Positions 6,383-30,925 of a stretch of 64,000 bases of DNA are shown here, piece by piece. This stretch comes from Lachnospiraceae bacterium (GTDB lineage Bacteria > Bacillota > Clostridia > Lachnospirales > Lachnospiraceae): positions 11,100 through 75,099 of the forward strand of contig CAAEWE010000058.1 of assembly GCA_900759665.1 (NCBI GenBank), in the 5' to 3' direction. The notes under the pieces were generated by a model. It made no database searches and was not told the DNA's origin. It saw nothing but the letters and a program-made list of their open reading frames with translations. Numbering within the stretch: the first letter of the stretch is position 1; every line of letters starts with the position of its first letter. The position numbers were made by a program, and so were the translations under genes.

Positions 6383-7186
6383 TCAGGCACGAAGCTTATA
6401 CTCTAACCGGATCTTATCTGCGATCAATGCAATAAACTCTGAATTGGTTGGCTTTCCTTTACCGGAATTGACCGTATAGCCAAATAATTCTTCAATCGTC
6501 TCCATTCTGCCACGGCTCCATGCCACCTCGATCGCATGGCGGATCGCGCGCTCCACCCGGCTGGAGGTGGTTTTATAATTCCGTGCGATCGTAGGATACA
6601 GCACCTTTGTGATTGCTCCCAGCATTTCATTATCATTGACGGACATAATAATTGCATCCCGAAGATACTGATATCCTTTAATGTGTGCCGGAACACCGAT
6701 CTCATGGATCACGTCCGTAACATCCGACTCCAATGTATCCGCCATGCGTCTATGTTTATTCTCAAAAACCGTATTAATGACCCGCTGTTCCCCGGCCGTC
6801 ATGCTTTTTTCGTTTTGTCCCACAGCACGCACCCGGGATACCACAACTCTCGTATCAAAGGGCTTCAGAATATAATAAGCTGCTCCCAGCCGGAACGCAT
6901 TTTCCGTCACCCGCTCCTGACTCACTGCAGATACCACCACAAATTCCGGCGACATGGTAGGTGCCCCCTTTTTCATCCGTTCCATCACTCCCAGACCGTC
7001 CACCTTTGGCATGATCAGATCCAACAGCACCACATCCGGCCGCAAGGCTGATATTTTACGAAGAGCCTCCTCTCCATCCGACGCCGTTCCTACCACCTCC
7101 ATATCTGTCTCCCGTTCCAGTGCTTCCTTCAGGATCGTTACGATCCGCTTGTTATCATCAACAACTAAAACCTTGATAGCTTCCAT
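6383..7186 (-). CDS. spo0A: sporulation master regulator Spo0A (REC domain plus Spo0A_C)
   Basis: REC domain VLVVDDN...[10 protein letters not shown] and the Spo0A-specific C-terminal helix [27 protein letters not shown]. Start MEAIKV at 7186 with a GGGGAAAGG RBS. Confidence 0.9.
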
Positions 7187-7354
7187 ATCCTTTCCCCTTT
7201 TCCTTGTGCTGTCCCATTTCCGGTACAACGTATCTTCAACACATTTTCCGTGATCCGACCTGTTTCCGTTTCCGCTGTTTCCGGTCTCCTTTCCCACTAT
7301 TTTAGGGCATTGCAAAGAGCATCCGCAAGCCAAATACAACTGCATATTTCGACG

Positions 7355-7392
7355 AAAAAACGGCGGAAGTACAAATTTCCGCCGTTTTCTTC
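7355..7392. terminator. bidirectional rho-independent terminator hairpin
   Basis: AACGGCGGAA-gtacaaat-TTCCGCCGTT, a perfect 10-bp stem flanked by an A-run and a T-run. It lies 3' of the minus-strand histidine kinase gene and upstream of spo0A. Confidence 0.55.
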
Positions 7393-7453
7393 TCCAATCC
7401 TGCGATTATTTTTTATGAAATCTTTTTATCATTTCTAACGTTCAGACCTCTCA

Positions 7454-16541: not shown

Positions 16542-17573
16542 CTATCTCCCATTTCTCGCACAACATGGGGATGCATACAGCTTTCCGTGGGTAAAATAAT
16601 TATAAGATCGGCACCCTGCAGCACATCGATCCGCATACCCACACTCCCTGCACGCCCCCTCTAATAGATCTGGCGTAAATTGACGGTTATAGGAAAATGC
16701 CCCCGGATCGTTCCATATATCATCCAGAGAACGGTCACGAAGATTTCCCTCTATAAAAGCTTCATCATACATGGATTCACATCCACGAACATTCCCCACA
16801 CTGTCAATCCCTATATTCGTGAGTCCCGCACCGCATCCCAGAAAAACTGCCCGTCCGCTGGTATTACCTCTTAATGTTCCCTCTGACTCTGTATAATAAC
16901 CAATATTGTCGGCTATCCCAATGGCAAAGTCAGAGCTTGCAATATGCTCCTCCACAAACCTGATCACACGCTGAAAGTCAATCTCCGTGGAAAAAATACC
17001 ACTGGAAGCATTTCCCATAGGAGAGCATGCCTGTAACTGCCATGCAAAAATCTTTTTGATCCGAAGCAGCTCATACATTTCCTCCAAATGACCGACATTC
17101 CTGCTGTGTAACGTACTGATCACCGATACCGGTATATCATTTTCAACTAATACCTCAAGTGCTTTCATTGCACATTTAAAGCTGCCCTTCTGCCGGAACA
17201 GGTCGTGAACTTCTTCGGGACCATCCAGGGAAATTGCAATAGATTCAATCCCTGTATCTTTTATCTTCGCCAAAGTCTCTTCCGTAAAAAGATATCCATT
17301 TGTAATTATGGATACATTCACATTTCGGTGGGTCAAAGCCTTTGCAATGACCGGCCAATCCTGACGCATAAACACCTCCCCGCCAATCATGGAAACCCTT
17401 TCACAGCCCAGTTCTGCCAACTGCTTCGCAACGTCCAGACACTCCTCTGTCGTTAATTCATTCTCACGGGCAGTCCCCGCCTTTGATCCACAATATTGAC
17501 ATGAAAAACAGCATGCCAGTGTAATCTCCCACACACAGGTACGTAACGGGTAATAATACTCCTCTTTATTCAT
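16542..17573 (-). CDS. radical SAM / SPASM-domain peptide-modifying enzyme (first of two)
   Basis: CxxxCxxC at ACCFSCQYC. C-terminal SPASM/twitch Cys clusters (GCGAGLTN...GCESMY...GACRECGYADRCAAGCRSY). Confidence 0.85.
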   Translation of the reverse strand: MNKEEYYYPLRTCVWEITLACCFSCQYCGSKAGTARENELTTEECLDVAKQLAELGCERVSMIGGEVFMRQDWPVIAKALTHRNVNVSIITNGYLFTEETLAKIKDTGIESIAISLDGPEEVHDLFRQKGSFKCAMKALEVLVENDIPVSVISTLHSRNVGHLEEMYELLRIKKIFAWQLQACSPMGNASSGIFSTEIDFQRVIRFVEEHIASSDFAIGIADNIGYYTESEGTLRGNTSGRAVFLGCGAGLTNIGIDSVGNVRGCESMYDEAFIEGNLRDRSLDDIWNDPGAFSYNRQFTPDLLEGACRECGYADRCAAGCRSYNYFTHGKLYASPCCARNGR

Positions 17574-17594
17574 AGTCCTGTATTCCTTTTACAA

Positions 17595-18383
17595 TTATTT
17601 CAATCGGTTTCTGATACGCTGTAACAAAGAATCCTTTTTCCTGGCATGCATTTCAGGATACCTGCCAGAAAGCCTGCCGGTTTTACCTTTTCCTTCCATT
17701 CGTTCCGGAGACGCATATACACATCTCATCTCTGGTTCCGGAGATGCATATACTTTATCCATTGTCACATCCGGTCTCGGGGATGCGTATACTTTATCCA
17801 TTGTTACATCCGGTCTCGGGGATGCATATACTGCTCCCGTCTCAACCCACATGTCCTTGTCGTATTCGCTGTCCCACACATCACAAAACCGCCACAATGC
17901 GGCCTGCAGCCTTTCTAATTGATAGAATGCAGTCTCCTTCCACTGGCTGTTATTCAGCAACTCCGATGTATTATTTTCGGAATGATCTGCCATATAATCA
18001 CTATAAACCTTCAAAAAATCTCTGGTAAGCTTCGTTGTATCTGCTTCCATCGCCACAATATTGTCAACACATAATTTCAGCTCCAATATCGCGGCATCCG
18101 GCGTATCAGCCCGCCTCTCTAAATATGCTTTCATCTCCTTCAACGGACCAATAATGTCATTCCACATGCCAGAGATATCGGCTGTAATCTGATCGATTCT
18201 CTCAACGTGACCATCAAACGAGTTCTCATTCCCAGCTTCCAGATATCTTCTTTTCAATATATCACAGCATTTGATAAACAGCTTCATTGCCTCTGCCATG
18301 CGTTCATACCTGCTGTCTCTAAATAAGCTGTCCCACTCTGTTTCCATATCCGTTTTCTCCTCGTACTCATTTTCATGTAACAT
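17595..18383 (-). CDS. hypothetical helical protein with a C-terminal run of about 3.5 tandem 13-aa repeats (VYASPRPDVTMDK)
   Basis: The 262-aa ORF ends 22 nt before the rSAM/SPASM start. The repeats are encoded by 39-bp DNA repeats at 17711-17842. Confidence 0.5.
   Translation of the reverse strand: MLHENEYEEKTDMETEWDSLFRDSRYERMAEAMKLFIKCCDILKRRYLEAGNENSFDGHVERIDQITADISGMWNDIIGPLKEMKAYLERRADTPDAAILELKLCVDNIVAMEADTTKLTRDFLKVYSDYMADHSENNTSELLNNSQWKETAFYQLERLQAALWRFCDVWDSEYDKDMWVETGAVYASPRPDVTMDKVYASPRPDVTMDKVYASPEPEMRCVYASPERMEGKGKTGRLSGRYPEMHARKKDSLLQRIRNRLK
17711..17842. repeat. 39-bp tandem repeat, about 3.5 copies, within the coding sequence
   Basis: GGATGCGTATACTTTATCCATTGTTACATCCGGTCTCGG is repeated with 1-3 mismatches per copy. 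Confidence 0.7.
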
Positions 18384-19902: not shown

Positions 19903-20254
19903 CTTCCTTTCTTTTTACTGTGTGATTTTTGTTTCCATGTCTATTGTAGCACATGGTATTCCACGAAATCTTTCCGTTTTTTTCAGTGTAGCTCTTCGCT
20001 AATTTCACATAGAAGGATTGTTACATTGTCCTTTCCTCCATTTTCAAGGGTATAGATATGATGTAAGAAAAGGTCTTTATTATCTAATGTATTTTGATTT
20101 TTTGTTTCTTTTTTAATTTATACCACATGAGTTTACTATAGTCTGTAAAAAATTTCATATTAGTCCATTGACTAAAAGTGAAAAAAATGGAAAAGTTTTA
20201 TTCCTTTCCATATGATAAACTGTAATAAAAATACTACCGGGAGGAATTAAACAC

Positions 20255-21211
20255 ATGGGATTAATAAATAATTTTATTTTCAACTCAATCAAACAAAAAG
20301 AAGACAATTTCACAAAAATAGTACGTGCTTATGATAATGGCGAAACCTGGGCACAAAAAGAATTTAATAATCTATTAAAAAATGGTGATCAAAATATCCT
20401 ATATCAAATTGACAGTATACGACAAAAAATCTATGCTAATGATGCAAAAAAAAATGATCCAAAAGCAATGTTTTATTATGGTATATCATCTCACGATTTC
20501 AATACATTTATGAGAATGTTAGTTCCATTGGCTGAACAAGGAAATGTAGATGCAATAATTGCCATAGCATCAGAATACTCACTTGGAACCATTACCTCAA
20601 GCAACGCCGAAGAAAGTTTTAAATGGTATTTAAAAGCTGCTCGCCTTGGAGATGTTTCCTCTCAAAATATCGTTGCATTGTCCTATACATGCAATGATGG
20701 ATGTGGCGAAATCAATTACGATAAAGCTTTTCATTGGTATTCTGCCTCCGCCAAACAAAACAATGCCAGTGGTTACTGTGGAATGGCAACCTGCTATGAA
20801 CATTGGCAAGATGAATTGGTCTTTCCACTACACGAAGCCACTTCCGTGCTGCACCAAAGGAATTATTCTGACATTAACGATGCCAGCCTTAAATATGACG
20901 AAAAGCGAATTGATTGTTATGAAACTGCACGGAACTTCATTTCAAACAATGATGAAGCTATCGAAACCTTCTACGGATTAGCAAAAAGCTATGCGTCAGC
21001 CAGCAAACATCTTTCTAATCAGAGCAATATACAAATGGCACAAAAATTGGCTATTTACTACTATTACGTAGCACACGACTGTGGTCACCCATATGGATTA
21101 AAATATGCAAAAGAGATTGCTGACAATAATAATATTTATGTCAATTTCTACAACATTGATGACTGGGCTGAAAAAGAAGGCATCATTACCTCTGAGCATG
21201 TAGAAAATTAG
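20255..21211 (+). CDS. Sel1-like repeat (SLR/TPR-like) protein, AT-rich
   Basis: Repeated A..WY.KAA..G motifs (KWYLKAARLGD, FHWYSASAKQNN). It is the only plus-strand gene in the accessory region and has an AT-rich upstream region. Confidence 0.65.
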   Translation: MGLINNFIFNSIKQKEDNFTKIVRAYDNGETWAQKEFNNLLKNGDQNILYQIDSIRQKIYANDAKKNDPKAMFYYGISSHDFNTFMRMLVPLAEQGNVDAIIAIASEYSLGTITSSNAEESFKWYLKAARLGDVSSQNIVALSYTCNDGCGEINYDKAFHWYSASAKQNNASGYCGMATCYEHWQDELVFPLHEATSVLHQRNYSDINDASLKYDEKRIDCYETARNFISNNDEAIETFYGLAKSYASASKHLSNQSNIQMAQKLAIYYYYVAHDCGHPYGLKYAKEIADNNNIYVNFYNIDDWAEKEGIITSEHVEN

Positions 21212-21216
21212 TAATC

Positions 21217-21257
21217 AAAAGGTCTGAACCACTCAACACGAGTGATTCAGACCTTTT
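21217..21257. terminator. bidirectional terminator between convergent genes
   Basis: AAAAGGTCTGAACCACTC-aacac-GAGTGATTCAGACCTTTTT: a 15-bp stem with an A-run on one side and a T-run on the other. Confidence 0.6.
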
Positions 21258-21281
21258 TACTTATTCCACCGACTATGTTAT

Positions 21282-21719
21282 TTAGCCTTCATTAAACGTT
21301 TCTTGAAATGCTTGTTGAAAAATATCATTCAAGACATCATAAAATGCATGCTCTTCCTTTTGATTTTTAGGTCCTAAAAGTGCTTTTCCAAGAATCCCCA
21401 TCTGCTGAGTTGATACTTCTCTTCTCCAGTTTTTACTGTCTCCAATCATATACTGTGTCAAATAACAACCATTTTCATTATTGTCAAATGCAAACGCATA
21501 TCCGTAATAATCCTTCATATGCATTGTATTATAGATTGTAATACATGGATACACCTTTCCAAGAAGTCCTTTTTTCTTACACTCATCTTTAGCAATCGTA
21601 AGGTTAATTCCATTCATCCTTGCCAATTCTGATATCTTCTGTGCAAACAAATCTAATGAAAAACCACTTCCACAAAATGCTGGATTACCACAAATTCTTT
21701 CATCTAATACTTTAATCAT
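21282..21719 (-). CDS. hypothetical protein (145 aa), last gene of the 11-gene operon
   Basis: Intact ORF with the same AT-rich composition and strand as the operon. No recognisable domain. Confidence 0.45.
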   Translation of the reverse strand: MIKVLDERICGNPAFCGSGFSLDLFAQKISELARMNGINLTIAKDECKKKGLLGKVYPCITIYNTMHMKDYYGYAFAFDNNENGCYLTQYMIGDSKNWRREVSTQQMGILGKALLGPKNQKEEHAFYDVLNDIFQQAFQETFNEG

Positions 21720-21791
21720 TTTTCTTTCGATGTATAAAACATCTGCTCCTTTCTACAAAATATGCTCACTTAAATTAAACAAGTAATTTAA

Positions 21792-21917
21792 TTAATGATC
21801 CTCTCCATATCTTGCTCTAACACAATGCCCACCTTCGCAAGATGAACGATCACTTGCCTCTGTATTAACTTTTACAGACACAACAACTTTTTTGATTTCT
21901 GGTTTTTGATAATTCAT
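21792..21917 (-). CDS. unannotated 41-aa peptide MNYQKPEIKKVVVSVKVNTEASDRSSCEGGHCVRARYGEDH, a candidate RiPP precursor
   Basis: ATG at 21917 lies 17 nt after the rSAM/SPASM stop (21935). AAAGGAGG RBS 9 nt upstream. TAA at 21792-21794. Too short for the track's 60-aa cutoff. Lys-rich N-terminus and a C-terminal C-x4-C-...-Y-G-E-D-H. Confidence 0.45.
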   Translation of the reverse strand: MNYQKPEIKKVVVSVKVNTEASDRSSCEGGHCVRARYGEDH

Positions 21918-21934
21918 AAAGTAATGCCTCCTTT

Positions 21935-23053
21935 CTACGGTTTTGCCAAATTTATCGCCTGTTCAAACGATATTTTATCCTCATAAAATGCCTTTCTTAT
22001 ATGAGCACTTTTACAAGCTTCTGAATCTCTATATTCCGGATTTCCATAAAGTAAATCCATTTCTGCCGGACAAATATCGCAATAATAGATCGACTCGCAT
22101 CCCTTACATTTATATTTATCCGATGCCACCAATTCCCCATATTTCCCAAACTCATCCCAAATCATGTCATAATTGCTTTTTTCCAGTTTTATTCCTCTGT
22201 GTCTTAATTTCATACACGGACACATATTGCCTTGGTAATCAATTACAAAACTATTCATTGCAACATTGCACGAATACACCTTTTCATTTTTTAACAACCA
22301 CTCTATAATCTGATCGTGATTAGATATCTTCTCTCGCGTTCCATTTGTTATCTGTGAGTAATAGTCCTCAAATTCATTCTTAAGCACAATATCCAAAGAA
22401 ATTCGATGGTTTCTTGGATCTTCATTTTTATCAATTGTTGGACAAATATCAAATGTATATACAAAAGGAATATCTAATCTTTCAGCAAGCTTTTTCATAT
22501 CAGTTAATTCTGGCAATGTGATATCAATAATCGGAGACTTCAATGAAATTCTCACACCTGCCTCCCTTATTTTAATACAATTTTCTATGACTCTTTCAAA
22601 CGCATTATGCACTCCTGTAACCTTGTAAAACGTCTCTTCATTTGCACCATATAACGAAATATCTACCAATAATGGAGGATATTTTTTTAATATCTCAATT
22701 AAATTATCAGTAAAAAAATATCCATTCGTAAACAGTTCTACTAGAAATCCTTTTTTCTTAGCATACAAATATATTTTATCAAAATCTTTTCTAGTTAATA
22801 TTTCTCCGCCCGTAAATGTTAAAAAAAGTATCCCTTTATCATATAAAATATCCATTATTTGCACTATTTGTTCATAGGTCATATCCTGTTCGCCATGAAA
22901 ATGCTGCAAATAACAATGTACACAATTAAAATTACATCTTGCAGTAATCTCAAATAAAACGGAGAATGGTTTTCTTTCCCTCATCCATTTTTCTCGCTTT
23001 TCTTCATTAAAATTTAAAATAGTCATATGTAACTTTTCATTAATTTCTTCCAT
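21935..23053 (-). CDS. radical SAM / SPASM-domain enzyme (second of two)
   Basis: CNFNCVHCY (CxxxCxxC) and C-terminal SPASM Cys clusters (CNVAMN...CPCMKL...CKGCESIYYCDICPAE). Start is 3 nt after the PqqD-like gene stop. Confidence 0.85.
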   Translation of the reverse strand: MEEINEKLHMTILNFNEEKREKWMRERKPFSVLFEITARCNFNCVHCYLQHFHGEQDMTYEQIVQIMDILYDKGILFLTFTGGEILTRKDFDKIYLYAKKKGFLVELFTNGYFFTDNLIEILKKYPPLLVDISLYGANEETFYKVTGVHNAFERVIENCIKIREAGVRISLKSPIIDITLPELTDMKKLAERLDIPFVYTFDICPTIDKNEDPRNHRISLDIVLKNEFEDYYSQITNGTREKISNHDQIIEWLLKNEKVYSCNVAMNSFVIDYQGNMCPCMKLRHRGIKLEKSNYDMIWDEFGKYGELVASDKYKCKGCESIYYCDICPAEMDLLYGNPEYRDSEACKSAHIRKAFYEDKISFEQAINLAKP

Positions 23054-23056
23054 CGA

Positions 23057-23338
23057 CTAGCATTCCTCCAAAAAACCTTCCTGTTTTAATGATTCAATAT
23101 AAACTTTAACATCTCTCAATAAGTCTTCTTCCGGAATTTTTTCCGAAATATTCTTCTTTAACGCTTCCACTAGTCCATATGCATTGATTGGTTTTGACAA
23201 CTGTTCCCAAAGGAATTCTCCTATTTCATTAAGTTGATATAAAAAACACTCATCATCAAAATAGTTTTGCGTTGCATCAATTAAAAATATCTCACCATGT
23301 ATATTTCTCTTTATAACATCTTTTCTTCTTGTAATCAT
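23057..23338 (-). CDS. PqqD-family peptide chaperone (RiPP recognition element)
   Basis: 93 aa: IHGEIFLIDATQNYFDDECFLYQLNEIGEFLWEQL...DVKVYIESLKQEGFL matches the PqqD/RRE pattern. Confidence 0.75.
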   Translation of the reverse strand: MITRRKDVIKRNIHGEIFLIDATQNYFDDECFLYQLNEIGEFLWEQLSKPINAYGLVEALKKNISEKIPEEDLLRDVKVYIESLKQEGFLEEC

Positions 23339-23396
23339 ATCGTATGTCTTCCCATTCCCTTTCGCTCAGCACAGCACCTACAATGCTCCACAAAAT

Positions 23397-23849
23397 TTAT
23401 ATATCATCCGCTTCTTCTGGAAGTTCAAACTCTTCTTTATTTAAATTTTCATTTGTCAAGGAAAAAAATTCTTCCTGTTTTCGACCTTCTTGATCTGTAA
23501 TCGTATATTTTCCTATTATTGCATGCGGACGCCAAGTATTTTCCTGATAATAGGGCTCAATTTCAACGTGTACATCATTACCATGCTCTAATTTATTAGC
23601 CCAAGTGTTTTCCAATGTTTTATATGCACTCCTGTTTATAAAACGATTCTGTGCAATCAAATTATCTAATTCGCCACTTCCACCAAACCGGCTTCCGATC
23701 AAATGTCCTCCATCGTCCGCATCGTGCCGAAATACACCTCCCGCTTTTAATTGAGCGGAAGCATTTCTTACTCCCCTTTCTAAATGTAAATCTCCCTCTG
23801 CCAAAACAATCCTGCCGTCATCATCTTTTTCATATGAATATCCATTCAT
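23397..23849 (-). CDS. mini DNA/RNA non-specific endonuclease of the DRGH / beta-beta-alpha-Me type (Endonuclease_NS-like)
   Basis: DDGGHLIGSRFGGSG...NLIAQNRFINRS...LENTWANKLE resembles the DRGH..N..PQ..N..W..E active-site region of Serratia/NucA-type nucleases. Only 150 aa. Confidence 0.5.
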   Translation of the reverse strand: MNGYSYEKDDDGRIVLAEGDLHLERGVRNASAQLKAGGVFRHDADDGGHLIGSRFGGSGELDNLIAQNRFINRSAYKTLENTWANKLEHGNDVHVEIEPYYQENTWRPHAIIGKYTITDQEGRKQEEFFSLTNENLNKEEFELPEEADDI

Positions 23850-23860
23850 TTCATAAGAAT

Positions 23861-24199
23861 TTACCTCATCTTTTTTTTTACATACTCATAAACCTCTGGT
23901 TCTTCATCTTCCCCAATCTCCTCCCACTCATCAAGCATCTGACTTAATTCATCAGAAATATCTTGTTCTTCATAATCTTCTCTGACATCAGATTCCATGT
24001 CCCCAACTTCTTCATATTCCTCTGAAATATCGACTTCATCATCGTAATATTCTGCAACTTCATCATAGTCAATATCACTTGAATCATACTCCACATCTGT
24101 AATATCAAGCATATCATCCAACACTGGAGTATCTACAACATCACTGCCGATATCATCCACATATTCCGTATCAAAACTCATATCATCCATTCTTCTCAT
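23861..24199 (-). CDS. highly acidic Asp/Glu/Tyr-rich protein (112 aa); possible nuclease inhibitor or DNA mimic
   Basis: Over 45% Asp plus Glu. Sits between the ATPase and nuclease genes. Overlaps the ATPase stop by 17 nt. Confidence 0.5.
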   Translation of the reverse strand: MRRMDDMSFDTEYVDDIGSDVVDTPVLDDMLDITDVEYDSSDIDYDEVAEYYDDEVDISEEYEEVGDMESDVREDYEEQDISDELSQMLDEWEEIGEDEEPEVYEYVKKKMR

Positions 24200-26855
24200 C
24201 CCCTTTCCTCTCTTTTGTAAACAAGGTAATCAATTTAATCTTTTCTTTATCATCCATTTTGTATAATCTGTCATTCAACTGAAGTTTTCGAAACAATTTA
24301 ATTCTTACACAAATAACAAATCCTCGATCATCTCTGTACCCCATCGCTGCCATCTTTTTTCCGAAAAGTAACGGAATACTTAAAAAAACACCTCTAATTG
24401 TTCTTTTTCTATCTGCATTCTTATATAATGCATCAACACAAACCGCATAGGCCTCACTGGAAATATATTCTGCATCCGCCTTTATTCTAAAATTACAACC
24501 TTTACCATATAATCCGCACAAATAACACTCTTTATATGGACACAATAACTTTTGTTTATCATCCCAGTAATGCATGAATTTTCTAATCAGATCATTGTCT
24601 ATACTTAATTTAATTTGCTTCTTTTCTCTTATATCCTCCGTCATCACAAGCTGCGGTTTACTAAATGCTGTAGAATAAACATATGCTTCACCAACTTGCA
24701 AACAAGAAAGATTTTCTTCCATTTCTGCATCCATATTGGTACTGTCCGCAATCAGTCTCCGTTCTGATGCCTCCACAAGCCGAAACACAATTTTGGTATC
24801 AGAAGCAGCAATGATATCATGAGTCACTTTTGACGGTGATTGATCCGCAATAATAACACCCGTTCCATACGCCCTGATTTCTTTAAGCATCCTTTGTAAT
24901 GATCTCACTGTTGATGATCCTGCAGAAATATCTGAATTATCTCCTCTCTCTTCTGGTGATAACAGAACATGTGCCTCATCAATCATCAAAACATTCTTGA
25001 GGTTGGTTCCTATACTTGAACTATTTATCTTGGTATATGCACAAACATCAACCAACAATAATGCCATGATCAATGCTTTTTGCTCCATGTTTTCTATGGA
25101 ATTTAGTTCTATGATTGTCGGTCTTGAAATTAAATCTTCAATAGGTATGGTATTGATCGAATCATAAATATTGCTATTCATGTCAATTAAATTCATCAAT
25201 CTCATAACACCTGCTGTTTCCAAATTTGATTTTACATCCTTGCTATAATTTGATGTTTGGAGCAATTTCTTAAATACTATAATAAATTCATGTAAACCAA
25301 ATATAGTAACATCCTTGTCATCAGATGTACTATAATTTTTCCATCCGTATTTCGTATAGCATTGTTGTATAGCGTTTTGGAATAATAAATCTAATGGTGA
25401 TGGCATAGAAAAAGCAGCCATAAATGCACTTACCAAAACAGGTTTATATTGCTCCACCGTAATTCCTTTTAATGGAATAAACGGATTAATGATAAATGGG
25501 GAAACACTAACATTTCCCGGTGTAAAAATTTGTATATCCGGCAATTGTTCTATCAAAGCTCTATACTCTGTCTTAGTCGGTTCGACTATCAAAAACGGAA
25601 TGTTTCTTTCAGCAAGTTGCAACATCAAATTGATAGAAAAGGTTGTTTTGCCGGTTCCTGGCATTCCCACAATCAATACATGCTTTGACAGTATTCTTTG
25701 GTCACATCCAATAGTAACTTTTTTCATATCTGATGATATTAATTGCCCAAACTTTATATTAGAATCACTAATAACCTCTTCTTTTAACTGCTCTCTTTGC
25801 TTTTTATATCTGTTTTCCTCAATGCCAGACATATTTCCATCATAAACCGGCAAACGAAAAAAAGAACTTATCTCTTCAATCGTCATCATCAAGGGAAGTC
25901 GGTACAAATAATTAGAGAGCGGAATATATTTACGAATTTTCATATTTCTATATTTGTGCATTAATAATGCACTCACATTCCATATATAATTAGGAAATTC
26001 ATCGATTATATTGCCGACACTTTTTGATATATCAATACAATTTCCCTCAAAACTACCAATATTACTGTCTCCACCTTTTAAAAGACCAATAATTTTAGCA
26101 GATAAAATAGCACAATCTTCTCTTGTTCCAAAAACCAATAAATTTGACAAAAACATAGGAGCATCCCGATTATCTTTATAATAAGATAATACTTCAAACG
26201 GTTCCTGAGCACATGTATCTTTTAAAAGCTGTCCATTAACAGGTATTCCTTTTGATAATCCTTCCAGTTCAGAACAATGTTGTATTAATATTGTAATTTC
26301 ATTATCATACAATTTTGTTGGTAATATACTAAACGAAATACCACAATTCTCCATCTGACTCAAGGCATTAATCAGAGACGCCAACCCCTCAGTATTATCT
26401 GATGGAATAATCTCTGTATAATAAAATGGACAAACACTAGACGGATTAATAACTACTTTTTCCTTTTTCTCCACAGCATACACCATACTTTTAACATCCT
26501 GTCTCCAAAGGTAATCAAAAGTTTGATGGCAATGTTCTGAGTCCTGACAAGAATATCCAAAATCCGATACTACATTTTGAATGTTATTTATAAGCATTTT
26601 AACGCTTGATACTGCTCCTGTACTTACATTGTCTATCTTTCGCACAACAATATAAATATGTATTTTCGAGGTATATGATTGATTATCAACTTTCTCAGTC
26701 AACCAAATAATTTCATAAGCAACATTCTGATTATCAAGTCTATACAACTCTCCTAAAACATTTTCAAAATCTGAAATTGTGTCTGAGAAAGTAACAATTT
26801 CCAGCATATCAACTGCCAAAAAACGATTGTCTGCTAATTCATACACCTGTACCAT
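24183..26855 (-). CDS. HerA/FtsK-superfamily P-loop ATPase (890 aa) with an unknown ~390-aa N-terminal domain and a C-terminal Cys cluster
   Basis: Walker A VGMPGTGKTT followed by LIVEPTKTEYRAL (HerA-like). Walker B LMIDEAHVLL. FtsK/HerA-type motif VIIADQSPSKV...KIVFRLV. C-terminal CPYKECYLCGLYGKGC. Confidence 0.65.
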   Translation of the reverse strand: MVQVYELADNRFLAVDMLEIVTFSDTISDFENVLGELYRLDNQNVAYEIIWLTEKVDNQSYTSKIHIYIVVRKIDNVSTGAVSSVKMLINNIQNVVSDFGYSCQDSEHCHQTFDYLWRQDVKSMVYAVEKKEKVVINPSSVCPFYYTEIIPSDNTEGLASLINALSQMENCGISFSILPTKLYDNEITILIQHCSELEGLSKGIPVNGQLLKDTCAQEPFEVLSYYKDNRDAPMFLSNLLVFGTREDCAILSAKIIGLLKGGDSNIGSFEGNCIDISKSVGNIIDEFPNYIWNVSALLMHKYRNMKIRKYIPLSNYLYRLPLMMTIEEISSFFRLPVYDGNMSGIEENRYKKQREQLKEEVISDSNIKFGQLISSDMKKVTIGCDQRILSKHVLIVGMPGTGKTTFSINLMLQLAERNIPFLIVEPTKTEYRALIEQLPDIQIFTPGNVSVSPFIINPFIPLKGITVEQYKPVLVSAFMAAFSMPSPLDLLFQNAIQQCYTKYGWKNYSTSDDKDVTIFGLHEFIIVFKKLLQTSNYSKDVKSNLETAGVMRLMNLIDMNSNIYDSINTIPIEDLISRPTIIELNSIENMEQKALIMALLLVDVCAYTKINSSSIGTNLKNVLMIDEAHVLLSPEERGDNSDISAGSSTVRSLQRMLKEIRAYGTGVIIADQSPSKVTHDIIAASDTKIVFRLVEASERRLIADSTNMDAEMEENLSCLQVGEAYVYSTAFSKPQLVMTEDIREKKQIKLSIDNDLIRKFMHYWDDKQKLLCPYKECYLCGLYGKGCNFRIKADAEYISSEAYAVCVDALYKNADRKRTIRGVFLSIPLLFGKKMAAMGYRDDRGFVICVRIKLFRKLQLNDRLYKMDDKEKIKLITLFTKERKGDEKNG

Positions 26856-26861
26856 ACTTTA

Positions 26862-28562
26862 TTAACCTCTCAATCCCTGTATATAATCATCTAATTCGCT
26901 TATTTTATTTACGCATGTTTCATACGTTTCTTTTTGTTTTTCCAAATCAGCAATAAAAGACTCAAGCACCTGTTTTCTTAGAGCAATACCATCATAATTT
27001 TTTTGCTCTTTTTGCAGCATTGGTTTTTTAATAAGTGTCTCAATACTCATAACGACAGCACGATAAATCCCCCATATAATAAGGATTGCTACGCTTGAAA
27101 ACACGCCATCCATTATGCTTTCTGTAACGCAGATATACAATGCCCAAACTATGCATACTATAATTGATAGTCTGAAATCATGAGGTTTCGATAATTTCTT
27201 TATTTTTGGTTTCAGCTCGTTCAGTTGCAACTGCAACATTCTAGTTTCTTCCCTTTTCTGACTTATCTCTGGCGATACATCCCTATATCCTGCATTTTGA
27301 TTTTGATAATAATTCCTCTCATCTTCCGCTTTTCTTATTGCCAGTCTCTTATCCTGCTCTTGTATTCTTCTTGTATATTCTCCCCACTCCTCCTGTATTG
27401 TTTTCGCCTTGTCTGGATTTGCAACCATGATTGCATGTTGTACCATATTTTCCATCTCAGAAGCCAATTTATTATCCAAATGAGTTAAACATTCACTTTG
27501 TACATAAGGTACCCCCCACCATCCACGATAATCTTCCGGATACCTATTTTGCATTTCAACATATAATTCATATGCTTTTTGAGTTTCATTCAGTCTCAAA
27601 AATGTTTCCGCATTGGCTGCTAAGCGGTTCACCTCAGATGTTTCTTCCTTTTGGAGATTCACAGTCTTTGTTTTGCTGTTCTGGATGACATTATTAACGC
27701 CCTCTACCAGATATTCCACATATCCTATTTTGTTCAAATCAAAAGATTGAAATGCAGAAAATTCCATTGGCATTTCATATGGAGATATATTTTTAAAGCA
27801 TGCAATCAGTGTTTTATCCTTATTTTCTTTCTTTAATTCCAAAAAACGAGACCATTCATTCTTCACCCAGGTAGAATTATAATATTCCGTTTTAGTTCCC
27901 AGAACAATCATTACCGTTGCACTCATCAATGCAGCATATATATACGGTTCATACTCTTGTCCAAGCTTACTCTCTAACGATTTTTTGGCAAAAAATGTGC
28001 GGTATCCTGCCTGCTCTAACGAGTTATAAATATTATATGCTATCATGCTGTCTTCCGTTGGCTCTCCATTTTCCATCTTATCTTTATAACAGATAAAGAC
28101 ATCATACGGCTTCTCTTCTTTTACAATTTTAATATATTTATTATAAATCTCGTCAATTTTGGTTGCTTCTTCTTGAAAAACATAAGATTCGTATATATCT
28201 GCATTTTGCAACGCTGCTTTATAATCCGGATCATCAAAAATAGAATGATCCTGTATTCTATGACATGTTGGTTTCCTTTCTCCGCTAATATCATTTACAT
28301 ACTCAATACCATATCGGCTTAAAACCATTCCCCAATGAGCCGCTGAATCTTTATGATCTTCTCGAAGCAAATCATCAAAAACAGATATTGCACCATCAAA
28401 ATCCAGATTTTGTCTTAAAAACGTAGCACGATTAAATAAATTTTCTATTTTGTCCTTATTTTTGGATACAATCATTTTCGAATCACAATACTTGCATGTT
28501 GCTATTGAAGTACTTTCATCAAAATCGATATTCGCTCCACACACCTCACACTTTAATATCAT
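26862..28562 (-). CDS. zinc-ribbon / TIR-domain protein with a C-terminal coiled coil and two TM helices
   Basis: N-terminal CEVCG...CKYCDS. TIR signature YDVFICYKD...EDSMIAYNIYNSLEQAGYRTFF...IYAALMSATVMIVLGTKTEYYNSTWVKNEW. Hydrophobic helices IIVCIVWALYICV and VAILIIWGIYRAVVM. Confidence 0.75.
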   Translation of the reverse strand: MILKCEVCGANIDFDESTSIATCKYCDSKMIVSKNKDKIENLFNRATFLRQNLDFDGAISVFDDLLREDHKDSAAHWGMVLSRYGIEYVNDISGERKPTCHRIQDHSIFDDPDYKAALQNADIYESYVFQEEATKIDEIYNKYIKIVKEEKPYDVFICYKDKMENGEPTEDSMIAYNIYNSLEQAGYRTFFAKKSLESKLGQEYEPYIYAALMSATVMIVLGTKTEYYNSTWVKNEWSRFLELKKENKDKTLIACFKNISPYEMPMEFSAFQSFDLNKIGYVEYLVEGVNNVIQNSKTKTVNLQKEETSEVNRLAANAETFLRLNETQKAYELYVEMQNRYPEDYRGWWGVPYVQSECLTHLDNKLASEMENMVQHAIMVANPDKAKTIQEEWGEYTRRIQEQDKRLAIRKAEDERNYYQNQNAGYRDVSPEISQKREETRMLQLQLNELKPKIKKLSKPHDFRLSIIVCIVWALYICVTESIMDGVFSSVAILIIWGIYRAVVMSIETLIKKPMLQKEQKNYDGIALRKQVLESFIADLEKQKETYETCVNKISELDDYIQGLRG

Positions 28563-28577
28563 CAGTACCTCCCATTA

Positions 28578-29831
28578 TTATAAATCCTTTAATTTTTCTC
28601 GTTCGATTTTGAACTCCTCATCAGTGTATAACCCTTCCTGCCAAGCCATTTTCAAACGTTTTAACCGTTTCATATACTCTTCATCATCAATATGATGCTT
28701 TTCATTGCATGAATTTTCTACTGATGTTTTCAAATGAACCATTCCCGGTATATCATCACCATCCTCGTTGCCGTTGCTAGGGGTTACATTTATATTTGCA
28801 CTATCATTGTCTGTAATCGGTGTCATTAGACTACTTCCTTGAATTTCATTTCCAAAACTACTCATTGTCTGACTAATAAACGGTGCCATCCCCATTCCCA
28901 TTCCAACTCCCATCATGGGTGCACTACTTCTTCCAATGCCTTCATTAGCTGCCGCAATATCCATCACCCCAAATCCTCTTCGCTGATGTTCCGTCATATT
29001 AAGAGTTTTATTAGCAATACTTTGAGCGATTGCATCGCGTTTTTTTATTTCCTCATCTGCTATATGCTCCGTAATTCTGACATTTGCATTGATTGCAGCT
29101 TCTTTTATCCGATTTTTTTCTTCCATATCCAAGAAAGTATTTTGGGACCATAAATGTTTATACATTTGATAATTAGGATCATCATCAGATGCATTGATAT
29201 TATTCACGTATAGATCCACCAATGCTATTCCGTATTCAAACATATAACTGGAAATTGCCTTTTTAAGCTGTTCTGCAATTCCCATTGGATTACTCTCAAG
29301 ATTAAAAATCGAAGTATTTTCTTCTCTTAAAATTGCCGGAAGCCATTGTTTGATGCATGAAATGATGATTCCTTTAAAATATCTCATCATATGTTCCTGA
29401 TCGAATTGCGTCTCCGTTCCAACCAACTTCAATAATATTTTTTTGGAATCCACCACTTTAATACTCATTTCACCGGACGTGCTAATAGCAAATGGCGGCA
29501 AGTTCAGACTTGGATCACTGTATTTTACACCTCCAACTCCCCAATTAATTGCCATTTGTTCCGTCTTATTTACAAAATAAACTTGACAGTGAAATGGCGA
29601 GACCCCATCACTTGGCAAATTGATAAGTTTGTTCAAAATAGGTATATTTTTAGTCTGTAATTTATATGATCCTGGTTGAAATATATCCGTCAACTGACCA
29701 TCTTTAAAAAAAGCTGCTTCTTGTGTTTCATGCACAATTAAGGTCGAATGAGTATTAAAATCTTCTCCCGGAAACTTCCATACGAATGTTCTATTATTTA
29801 TTTCACCTTTTATTACGTCAAATATTAGCAT
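28578..29831 (-). CDS. SPFH/Band-7-like protein of the YdjI (COG4260, 'virion core protein-like') family with a C-terminal SHOCT domain
   Basis: FDVIKGE...FVWKFPGEDF...LIVHETQEAAFFKDGQ...CQVYFVNKTEQMAINWGV follows the YdjI pattern. C-terminal EEYMKRLKRLKMAWQEGLYTDEEFKIEREKL is SHOCT-like. Confidence 0.6.
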   Translation of the reverse strand: MLIFDVIKGEINNRTFVWKFPGEDFNTHSTLIVHETQEAAFFKDGQLTDIFQPGSYKLQTKNIPILNKLINLPSDGVSPFHCQVYFVNKTEQMAINWGVGGVKYSDPSLNLPPFAISTSGEMSIKVVDSKKILLKLVGTETQFDQEHMMRYFKGIIISCIKQWLPAILREENTSIFNLESNPMGIAEQLKKAISSYMFEYGIALVDLYVNNINASDDDPNYQMYKHLWSQNTFLDMEEKNRIKEAAINANVRITEHIADEEIKKRDAIAQSIANKTLNMTEHQRRGFGVMDIAAANEGIGRSSAPMMGVGMGMGMAPFISQTMSSFGNEIQGSSLMTPITDNDSANINVTPSNGNEDGDDIPGMVHLKTSVENSCNEKHHIDDEEYMKRLKRLKMAWQEGLYTDEEFKIEREKLKDL

Positions 29832-29850
29832 ATGTTCATCCTCTTAGATA

Positions 29851-30432
29851 TTATTCAGCCTCAACAGTTAATCCCTCAATTCTTGTTCCATTCATATCAT
29901 GATTCTCCGTCATAAATGTTGTAATTCTCCCCGAATCTGCTGTCGACTCAATAAACACTTTTCCTGCTGCTCCATTAAAATCATTAGCAGTCTCCGATTT
30001 AAAACTTAACGATGCAATGAAATCATCCATTGATGTATATCCTGTAAGTTGCAAAAATGTTTCAACGACCTCTCTTGAATAATAAGAATCTACAATATCA
30101 CCTAAATCGGATAACTCCACAGTTGTGCTCTTAGTTATTGCGCCACTCTGAGCCAGAGAAGAAACAATATCTGTTGTTATGCTGCTTAATATCTGTTGAT
30201 CTTTACTCATACTACTTAATTCATCATACTCTTCATTGTCTCCATAAAGGTCATTATCAATATCACTGATTATTTGTTGATTTGCGGCGTTTTGTTCTGA
30301 TCCACCAGTTTGATTCGATCTACGAGATGTAATGATTCCTGTCGTTACAATTGCAATGCACACTAAAACTGCTGCTCCTAAAATAGCAAGTACAATAATT
30401 TTGGTATTATTTTTCTCTTTCATGTTTTCCAT
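29851..30432 (-). CDS. N-terminally membrane-anchored hypothetical protein (193 aa), first gene of the operon
   Basis: A single TM helix (IIVLAILGAAVLVCIAIVTTGII) followed by a Ser/Thr/Asp-rich domain. 19-nt gap to the next gene. Confidence 0.5.
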   Translation of the reverse strand: MENMKEKNNTKIIVLAILGAAVLVCIAIVTTGIITSRRSNQTGGSEQNAANQQIISDIDNDLYGDNEEYDELSSMSKDQQILSSITTDIVSSLAQSGAITKSTTVELSDLGDIVDSYYSREVVETFLQLTGYTSMDDFIASLSFKSETANDFNGAAGKVFIESTADSGRITTFMTENHDMNGTRIEGLTVEAE

Positions 30433-30925
30433 TTCCTTTCTATCTATTCTTTGTACATTTATACCTCAACTCTTATTCTATCATCCTGCTGTCTTTATTT
30501 TCTTTCCGTTTTTTTCATTATTTAACTATTTTTCTTCTTTTTATATTTCTTATTCTTGTAGAATATAATTTAACAAAACACGTTTAAACCCTGTATTTTT
30601 CAGCATTTAGCAGTGATTTATAATTTTTTTCGTCGCATTATTATACAATTTTTTTAAATTTCAAAAAAAATTGCACAAATTTTCTTATCATATTTTGTCA
30701 ATACTGCCTATTGGATGTTTCCTCACTACTCCCTTACTTCGTCTTTCTTTGTTTATCACGTTAAACCACTTCATTTTATAAACCATTCCTACTAACTGCC
30801 AAACTTCACATATCTTATTGAGTATTTTCCCCATCTCTATAACACAGAATATATCAGTCGTTTGATATATTTATTCTTCTTTCCTATCGTTCTCCCATTT
30901 CTTTCCTTTTTCATTCACGCAAACA

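Follow-up and report, generated by a model that had tools for sequence, protein, structure and literature searches.

A conserved 41-residue peptide encoded beside a PqqD-like protein and a radical-SAM/SPASM enzyme in gut Firmicutes: a candidate RiPP precursor family

In peptides matured by radical S-adenosylmethionine (rSAM) enzymes of the SPASM type, a conserved cysteine usually marks the formation of a thioether, either sactionine or ranthionine, while precedents for cross-links to aromatic residues are found in streptide (Lys-Trp), ryptide (Arg-Tyr) and the three-residue cyclophanes. Such products belong to the RiPPs, peptides made by the ribosome and altered after translation, and for lasso peptides the leader motif recognised by the RiPP recognition element (RRE) is Y-x-x-P-x-L. 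Here we analyse a locus in a 64,000-nucleotide window from a Lachnospiraceae bacterium (GenBank assembly GCA_900759665.1, contig CAAEWE010000058.1, positions 11,100 to 75,099 of the forward strand; all coordinates below are those of the window), in which the genes for a PqqD-like RRE, an rSAM/SPASM enzyme and a peptide of 41 amino acids (aa) form a conserved three-gene unit under purifying selection. Comparison of this unit with its relatives makes it likely that the 41-aa open reading frame (ORF) encodes the precursor of an RRE-dependent rSAM-modified peptide (RaS-RiPP). The genes of the unit and the translation signal of the peptide gene are as follows.

23338 to 23057, minus strand: PqqD-family RiPP recognition element, a discrete chaperone gene, 93 aa (Pfam PF05402 PqqD)
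23053 to 21935, minus strand: radical-SAM/SPASM peptide maturase (predicted), 372 aa (Pfam Radical_SAM and conserved Cys)
21927 to 21934, minus strand: Shine-Dalgarno sequence AAAGGAGG, which serves the peptide gene and adjoins the rSAM stop (read from the sequence)
21917 to 21792, minus strand: candidate precursor peptide, 41 aa, MNYQKPEIKKVVVSVKVNTEASDRSSCEGGHCVRARYGEDH (conservation and coding-type selection)

A preliminary description of this DNA had named the same three ORFs, and all of them were found at its coordinates, on the minus strand. The end of the 93-aa ORF and the start of the 372-aa ORF are separated by 3 nucleotides (nt). The TAG stop of the rSAM gene (plus-strand positions 21935-21937) directly abuts AAAGGAGG (plus-strand positions 21927-21934), which is followed by a spacer of 9 nt (21918-21926) and then by the ATG of the peptide gene; the 17-nt gap between the two genes and the ribosome-binding site with its 9-nt spacer had thus been read correctly.

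The distribution of the peptide gene was determined from the rSAM enzyme. Scanning species-representative genome contigs with a single rSAM sequence returned one locus only, and the metagenome scan was then run with an rSAM alignment, which gave 79 loci including 45 gut-type loci with enough downstream sequence to be eligible. A homologous peptide gene directly follows the rSAM gene in 41 of these 45, in the same register and as 22 distinct sequences, and in three others (L022, L024 and L045) the peptide is found behind a second, inserted rSAM gene. In locus L006 (4373-4624) a rearrangement has cut off the peptide gene after residue 22 and fused it in frame to an unrelated Cys-rich ORF; with its PqqD and rSAM genes intact, this locus is a natural precursor knockout. 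In a distant clade from soil the peptide follows the rSAM gene in 24 of 26 loci. This degree of conservation supports the proposal, made in the preliminary description, that the ORF is a candidate RiPP precursor. The sole relative in the species-representative genome set, Candidatus Clostridium stratigraminis, shows the same gene order, with an rSAM enzyme that is 68% identical and a 41-aa peptide, MSYKKPEIKKIEVSIKVNSDASDRSSCEGGHCVKARYGQDH, that is 78% identical and whose gene overlaps the rSAM stop. In some of the loci two different precursor-like genes lie in tandem after one rSAM gene (L026, 7143-7408; L027 and L028, about 7140-7403), for example MHYSKPDIKKIVVDVKVNMNASQTGSCAGGQCVKTRYAQDP and MKYESPEIREIVVSVQVNANASELSSCDGGHCVKARYSGDN.

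At the protein level, a word-indexed search returned 15 clusters of peptide homologues. When 1.84 billion representative proteins were searched with a profile, only about 17 clusters came back, made up of short peptides throughout, from which it follows that the peptide family is small and specific. In NCBIfam the peptide matches no family at E ≤ 0.1, and Pfam yields no meaningful match. The preliminary description had called it unannotated, which holds in that it carries neither a functional annotation nor a family model, but not in the sense of an overlooked ORF, for the identical 41-aa product has already been called on 40 public contigs, NCBI assemblies among them; the C. stratigraminis homologue is listed at NCBI as a "hypothetical protein". 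The earlier remark that the peptide is not recognisable as SCIFF, PqqA, MftA or a known sactipeptide agrees with the NCBIfam search, as far as curated families go.

Selection was analysed on 23 distinct nucleotide versions of the peptide gene. The proportion of differing synonymous sites (pS) was 0.73, which means that synonymous sites are saturated, and that of nonsynonymous sites (pN) was 0.21, giving a pooled pN/pS of 0.28 and a median ratio of nonsynonymous to synonymous substitution rates (dN/dS) of 0.16. The third codon position is the most variable, and the other two frames hold 79 and 112 stops. The core of the peptide (codons 25-40) has a ratio of 0.21 versus 0.33 for the leader and is therefore under tighter constraint. 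All 23 genes have a GGAGG-type Shine-Dalgarno sequence 6-10 nt upstream of the ATG. The coding-like substitution pattern that the preliminary description had made a test of the ORF is thus present. Dozens of loci keep the 41-aa ORF beside the same enzyme, purifying selection acts on it, and it can be taken from these comparisons as a true gene, far beyond what chance would produce.

The two proteins encoded upstream of the peptide are those of a RiPP maturation system, to judge from their domains. The PqqD-like protein matches Pfam PF05402 with 34.9 bits (E = 2e-8; cutoff 23.4), and its top NCBIfam match is the lasso-peptide PqqD chaperone, at 24.6 bits and below the cutoff of 80; a PqqD homologue is present in 55 of the loci fetched, nearly always directly upstream of the rSAM gene. 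The rSAM enzyme matches Pfam Radical_SAM with 91 bits and has 431 homologues at E ≤ 1e-20, which come from Blautia, Anaerostipes, Clostridium and Lachnospiraceae and of which some clusters hold about 200 member sequences. In 18 homologues of 50-70% identity the CX3CX2C cluster motif (C40-N-F-N-C44-V-H-C47) is invariant, as are all seven SPASM cysteines (C262-x12-G-x4-C280, C316-x2-C319-x5-C325-x2-C328 and C347), and PF13186 (SPASM) is recorded for many rSAM homologues. An AlphaFold2 (AF2) model built on the homologue alignment has a mean predicted local confidence (pLDDT) of 86. The folds in the PDB nearest to this model are those of the RiPP maturases SuiB and SkfB and the SPASM enzyme BlsE, then anSME, MoaA, CteB and PqqE, with 14-20% identity; SuiB is the top match with a template-modelling (TM) score of 0.64 at 16% identity. 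SkfB ranks fourth by fold, and when solved structures are compared by sequence it comes nearest (E = 6e-12). The enzyme matches 67 rSAM families of NCBIfam, every match listed being far below its own cutoff. The highest is AhbD with 91 against a cutoff of 500, and other scores are 66.6 against 381 for PqqE, 58.6 against 265 for MftC and 49.5 against 625 for StsB; the SCIFF maturase (TIGR03974) is absent from the best 25 of the 67 matches. At the level of sequence, the locus shows all the features by which RRE-dependent rSAM/SPASM RiPP systems are recognised: the CX3CX2C core, a predicted seven-Cys SPASM domain, an adjacent RRE and a co-conserved putative precursor.

The peptide itself has two parts. 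The leader, approximately residues 1-24, is Lys-rich and carries Y3-x-x-P6-x-I8 followed by an alternating, beta-strand-like KVVVSVKV; in the family the leader pattern is Y-x-x-P-x-(I/V/L)-x-x-(V/I/M). The core, approximately residues 25-41, contains S-C27-E-G-G-H-C32-V-R-A-R-Y37-G-E-D-H. Residues Y3, K5, P6, K10, K16, V17, A21, D23, S26-C27-E-G-G-H-C32-V33 and Y37 are invariant across the 15 clusters. In the wider gut family the core reads S-C-x-G-G-(H/Q/R)-C with an aromatic residue five positions past the second Cys, and the context of this residue is C-V-R-A-R-Y, or C-E-R-E-R-F in a 49%-identity subclade. A zinc knuckle formed by C27, H31, C32 and H41 was considered and rejected, as H31 and H41 vary (to Q or R and to Y, P, N or Q, respectively).

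The same elements recur in the soil clade (L055-L080), which is of high GC content and has rSAM enzymes only about 30% identical to that of the window. Its peptides are 55-60 aa long (e.g., ...RRPYEPPAVIEVFVDPAKDMLVACAPGKLPSTGTQACNAVQFT) and retain Y-x-x-P-x-V, two Cys that are here 12 residues apart, and a Phe at position +5 (...PYEPPAVIEVFVDPAKDMLVAC...C-N-A-V-Q-F-T); they have no curated family match either. That the leader motif and the two-Cys-plus-aromatic arrangement have been kept over this distance is the strongest indication that the peptide is the substrate of the enzyme, and it suggests that the Cys and the aromatic position are the ones that matter for function. It also suggests that the gut and soil clades, tied by these two features, form a broader and so far unrecognised superfamily. 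Two proteins adjoin the module in the soil clade, one of 293 aa that is weakly HprK-like and one of 568 aa with a C-terminus like that of S26 signal peptidase; further neighbours look, by eye from their sequences, like polysaccharide export and sugar-nucleotide genes, which would place the clade in exopolysaccharide loci.

For a precursor of this kind the following mechanism can be proposed. The RRE would bind the leader as a beta-strand through the Y3-x-x-P6-x-hydrophobic motif, and this binding would offer the C-terminal core to the rSAM enzyme, which would cleave S-adenosylmethionine at its CX3CX2C cluster and take a hydrogen atom from a core residue, after which its two auxiliary SPASM clusters would be used to form intramolecular cross-links in the core. 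Our best guess is that these would be thioether bridges from C27 and C32 to carbons of nearby residues, one likely link being from C32 to the +5 aromatic residue (Y37) or its neighbours, so that a small knotted C-terminal structure would result. Where sactipeptide and ranthipeptide synthases are concerned, it is the Cys of the substrate that is conserved. Given RiPP maturation, we tentatively favour thioether chemistry at C27 and C32, which may have somewhat less than an even chance of being correct; joining of the aromatic residue through a C-C or C-O bond would be a minor possibility, and the remainder falls to other reactions such as epimerisation.

Several observations weigh against the proposal of a RiPP precursor, or against its thioether version. 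The SPASM model of Pfam scores 17.3 bits on the rSAM enzyme of the window, short of the gathering cutoff of 21.5, and the models of known thioether-forming families are far below their cutoffs (AlbA 70.8 against 850, SkfB 60.5 against 300 and PapB 54.6 against 340). The peptide has only two Cys, where typical sactipeptides and ranthipeptides have three to six, and in the outlier peptides P0163 and P0166 position +5 is not aromatic. For secreted RiPPs it would be unusual that neither a leader-cleavage motif nor a peptidase or transporter was found. Lastly, the top structural neighbour, SuiB, forms a C-C bond and not a thioether.

This last point bears directly on an alternative in which the RiPP system is the same but the enzyme installs a C-C or C-O cross-link on Y37, leaving the Cys to form a disulfide or to bind a metal or cluster. 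Besides SuiB being the best structural match of the modelled enzyme, the gut and soil clades both keep the +5 aromatic residue, which in gut peptides comes after R/K-x-R/K (R-A-R-Y). However, while the two Cys are universal, soil peptides do not conserve the basic residues (N-A-V-Q-F), the peptide contains no KxxxW or other known cyclophane motif, and models of the WgkB, YhhB, AmcB and GrrM type score no better than those of the thioether families. We regard a Y37 cross-link of this kind as unlikely, and continue with the Cys-centred version of the RiPP proposal.

Absent from the preliminary description were a fourth gene of the operon, here named c9, the recurrence of Sel1-repeat proteins and of a second rSAM enzyme near the module, the lack of a protease or exporter, and the location of the module in a horizontally acquired island. 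The features that follow the peptide gene in the window are given here.

21719 to 21282, minus strand: c9, an accessory protein of 145 aa whose gene closes the operon
21217 to 21257: hairpin with 18-nt arms that are 94% complementary and T-runs on both strands (inverted-repeat search and sequence)
20255 to 21211, plus strand: Sel1-repeat protein, 318 aa, convergent with the operon (Pfam Sel1, 40.9 bits)

The peptide gene and c9 are 72 nt apart, and no terminator-like site lies in this gap; the sole such site near the junction, at 21847-21827, is inside the peptide ORF. The hairpin at 21217-21257 is a bidirectional terminator which closes both the operon and the convergent Sel1 gene. The operon here is thus one of at least four co-directional genes and not of three, c9 being co-transcribed with the PqqD, rSAM and peptide genes. 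There is no Rfam match in the region, and an RNA element was ruled out.

Clustering of the neighbouring ORFs of all loci gave about 16 distinct gut architectures. The c9 family (145-169 aa, of unknown fold) occurs in nine of these, either upstream of PqqD or downstream of the peptide, and a hidden Markov model of the family confirms 12 members. A 161-aa protein found in the position of c9 in L003-L012 was evaluated as a distant homologue and rejected (hhalign probability 0.9%). In the 49%-identity subclade (L029-L054) a protein of 106-114 aa replaces c9 after the peptide gene in several loci; to judge by its sequence it seems to have one hydrophobic segment at the N-terminus, which may span the membrane, and a Cys-rich domain at the C-terminus, and it has no NCBIfam match. 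Sel1/TPR-repeat proteins flank the module in eight of the architectures and a HerA-like ATPase of 885-890 aa is found in three. Four architectures (L014; L017; L022, L024 and L045; L026) include a second rSAM/SPASM enzyme of 417-428 aa, which is of the peptide-maturase type with best matches, all below cutoff, to Clo7bot, TIGR04463, CefB, geopeptide and PapB-like models. This suggests that some members of the family are modified by two rSAM enzymes, and in these relatives the second enzyme would add a further modification to that proposed above. The c9 and Sel1-repeat proteins would be candidates for binding, immunity or receptor partners of the product. No protease or transporter recurs among the clustered neighbours. 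Since the module brings no protease or exporter of its own, the product may remain a full-length 41-mer and act inside the cell, or it may rely on processing and export by the host.

The recurrence of c9 and Sel1 proteins nearby, together with the location of the module among toxin- and defence-like genes, could also be read to mean that the peptide is real but not a substrate of the rSAM enzyme, being instead a small toxin, antitoxin or regulator, with the rSAM and PqqD proteins acting on c9 or on the Sel1 protein. It is the peptide alone, however, that accompanies the rSAM gene in essentially all loci, when c9 does so in about 9 and Sel1 in about 8 of the 16 architectures; the RRE-type leader motif persists down to 30% enzyme identity, and tandem copies of the peptide gene are typical of RiPP precursors. 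We therefore consider this explanation highly improbable next to that of a modified precursor.

The wider surroundings of the module were delimited by GC profile and by a direct repeat.

19969 to 30517: low-GC island of 10.5 kb which carries the module (GC profile and direct repeat)
23397 to 30432, minus strand: co-directional array upstream of the module

The island has a GC content of 31-35%, versus 43-50% in its flanks, and is bracketed by an exact 17-nt direct repeat, TCTTTCCGTTTTTTTCA, at 19969-19985 and 30501-30517. It contains the module and the genes for Sel1, Endonuclea_NS_2, acidic 112-aa, HerA-like, TIR, SPFH and 193-aa proteins. Those of the array 23397-30432 are the 193-aa protein, a 417-aa SPFH/Band_7 protein, a 566-aa TIR_2 protein that also matches TPR weakly, a HerA/DUF87-like ATPase (890 aa; top PADLOC match mad8), the very acidic 112-aa protein and a stand-alone Endonuclea_NS_2 nuclease (150 aa), and the array may by itself constitute a system of defence or a toxin system. 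In C. stratigraminis (L001) the module is again accompanied by SPFH and HerA-like genes; there the HerA-like gene is fragmentary and the module intact, showing the module to be independent of the HerA-like ATPase. On one side the island is flanked by a glutamate symporter gene, and on the other by a block of CHAP, second RiPP cluster and HTH-M78 genes, with a phosphate-transport operon beyond. Its position is identical in every contig of this gut species examined (e.g., in GCA_902470585.1). A search by way of the flanking glutamate symporter gene identified no island-free empty site among contigs of the same species, all of which carry the island, and there is no integrase inside it. A plasmid, phage or viral origin found no support, the rSAM enzyme being without match in plasmid, phage and IMG/VR collections. 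The module is set among conflict-type genes, in an island gained by horizontal transfer.

The second RiPP cluster of the flank is a candidate pair unrelated to the module, at 16542-18383 on the minus strand and of host-like GC content. Its rSAM/SPASM enzyme (343 aa) has as top NCBIfam match the nif11-class maturase 3, with 234 bits and below the cutoff of 725. It is preceded by a protein of 250 or 262 aa whose C-terminus has four "VYASP(R/E)P..." motifs, encoded in a 39-nt tandem repeat at 17739-17832; some other strains have three motifs, and in some the pair is absent.

Conflict-type neighbours are found at other loci too, including an IetA-like AAA+ ATPase (L009), a PD-T4-6/mad6-like kinase (L016), a Schlafen/AlbA_2-like protein matching pAgo-associated models (L023), an 870-aa Hsp70-like protein (L027), and FHA and NrdG-like proteins (L013). 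In PADLOC-DB 2.0 neighbouring genes of the module, in the window and at other loci, match models for HerA/mad8, TIR, IetA, PD-T4-6/mad6 and pAgo-associated proteins. The peptide and the PqqD-like protein have no match there, the rSAM enzyme has only a generic rSAM match to pVip (61 bits), and c9 matches a single weak candidate-system model, PDC-S26 (E = 0.0043, 14 bits). It is conceivable, if rather doubtful, that the module is a part of conflict or anti-phage islands in which the modified 41-mer serves as an intracellular effector, inhibitor or signal that is read out by c9, by the Sel1/TPR proteins or by both. With this role it would make sense that, in independent lineages, the module is found again and again beside HerA-like, TIR, SPFH, IetA-like AAA+, Hsp70-like, FHA, Schlafen-like and kinase genes, and an action inside the cell would fit with the lack of an encoded protease or exporter; the argument for it is solely one of guilt by association.

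The same surroundings count against another explanation, by which the peptide would be the precursor of a small redox cofactor of the PQQ or mycofactocin type, its Tyr/Glu/Asp tail being excised after cross-linking. In its favour are the lack of an encoded exporter and the likeness of the layout to MftB/C/A and PqqD/E/A, given a PqqD-like protein that stands alone, an rSAM/SPASM enzyme, and a short peptide whose C-terminal core is very conserved. But the module is part of an accessory island acquired horizontally, its neighbourhoods are variable and of the conflict type and not metabolic, and it has no recurrent peptidase, oxidoreductase or glycosyltransferase partner. In addition, the MftC and PqqE models score far below their cutoffs on the enzyme (58.6 and 66.6, as given above), the peptide matches neither MftA nor PqqA, and the tail after the Tyr is variable (G/S/E/R, then Q/E/G, D, and H/Y/P/N). 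A cofactor precursor would thus come as a considerable surprise.

No description of the family or of the core motif CEGGHC was found in the literature searched, which covered gut rSAM RiPPs with PqqD, Sel1 proteins with rSAM RiPPs, and rSAM RiPPs in phage defence. A compendium of about 15,000 RRE-associated rSAM enzymes has been published (PMC10288494), and the family may be listed, as uncharacterised, among its entries. On sequence grounds we place the peptide and its enzyme as a new, predicted precursor and enzyme family within the known class of RRE-dependent rSAM RiPPs. Another rSAM RiPP family as such will be no surprise to a RiPP specialist. This one is of moderate interest because human-gut Firmicutes commonly carry the module and its core is almost invariant across genera, yet it falls outside every curated family; because it offers a compact and readily testable three- or four-gene system for finding a new rSAM modification; and because missing export and processing genes, together with repeated defence-type islands, hint that a RiPP may here have its role inside the cell.

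Among known systems, the leader motif Y-x-x-P-x-(I/V/L) mirrors the Y-x-x-P-x-L of lasso peptides, and the top NCBIfam match of the RRE is to the corresponding chaperone, comparable to lasso B1 proteins; there is no lasso cyclase or B2 protease, and this likeness is one of recognition only and not of class. Streptide (SuiA/SuiB) and the streptococcal RaS-RiPPs share with the module a compact operon and a short precursor, and SuiB provides the top predicted fold match, but identity to SuiB is 16%, the KxxxW motif is missing, the RRE is discrete, and neither an Rgg/SHP regulator nor an exporter is present. The discrete PqqD-family chaperone, the rSAM/SPASM enzyme and the conserved Tyr-containing C-terminus are reminiscent of mycofactocin (MftA/B/C) and PQQ (PqqA/D/E). 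Unlike MftA, however, the peptide does not end in Val-Tyr but in Y-G-E-D-H, and there are no mftD/E/F neighbours; unlike PqqA it has no E-x3-Y, and pqqB/C/F genes are not found nearby. With the sactipeptides (AlbA/subtilosin, SkfB/SKF, StsB, RumMC) it has in common an RRE-guided rSAM/SPASM enzyme that would act on a Cys-containing core, and it differs from them by AlbA, SkfB and StsB scores far below cutoff, by the lack of a hairpin-type array of three or four Cys with distal acceptors, and by the lack of an ABC transporter, immunity gene or protease. From the SCIFF and ranthipeptide systems (CteB, PapB) it is set apart by an RRE encoded as a separate PqqD gene, which in those systems is an N-terminal domain of the enzyme, by a precursor gene downstream of the enzyme gene, and by a maturase that tests outside the SCIFF, PapB and QhpD families (54.6 against 340 for PapB); compared to SCIFF itself it has two Cys as opposed to six in about 45 residues, no sequence similarity and no C-x3-D/E spacing. 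It is nevertheless with these systems that the module shares a short, Cys-containing precursor that is highly conserved across Clostridia, an rSAM/SPASM enzyme with two predicted auxiliary clusters, the lack of a dedicated protease or exporter and, in CteB, a structural neighbour of the modelled enzyme.

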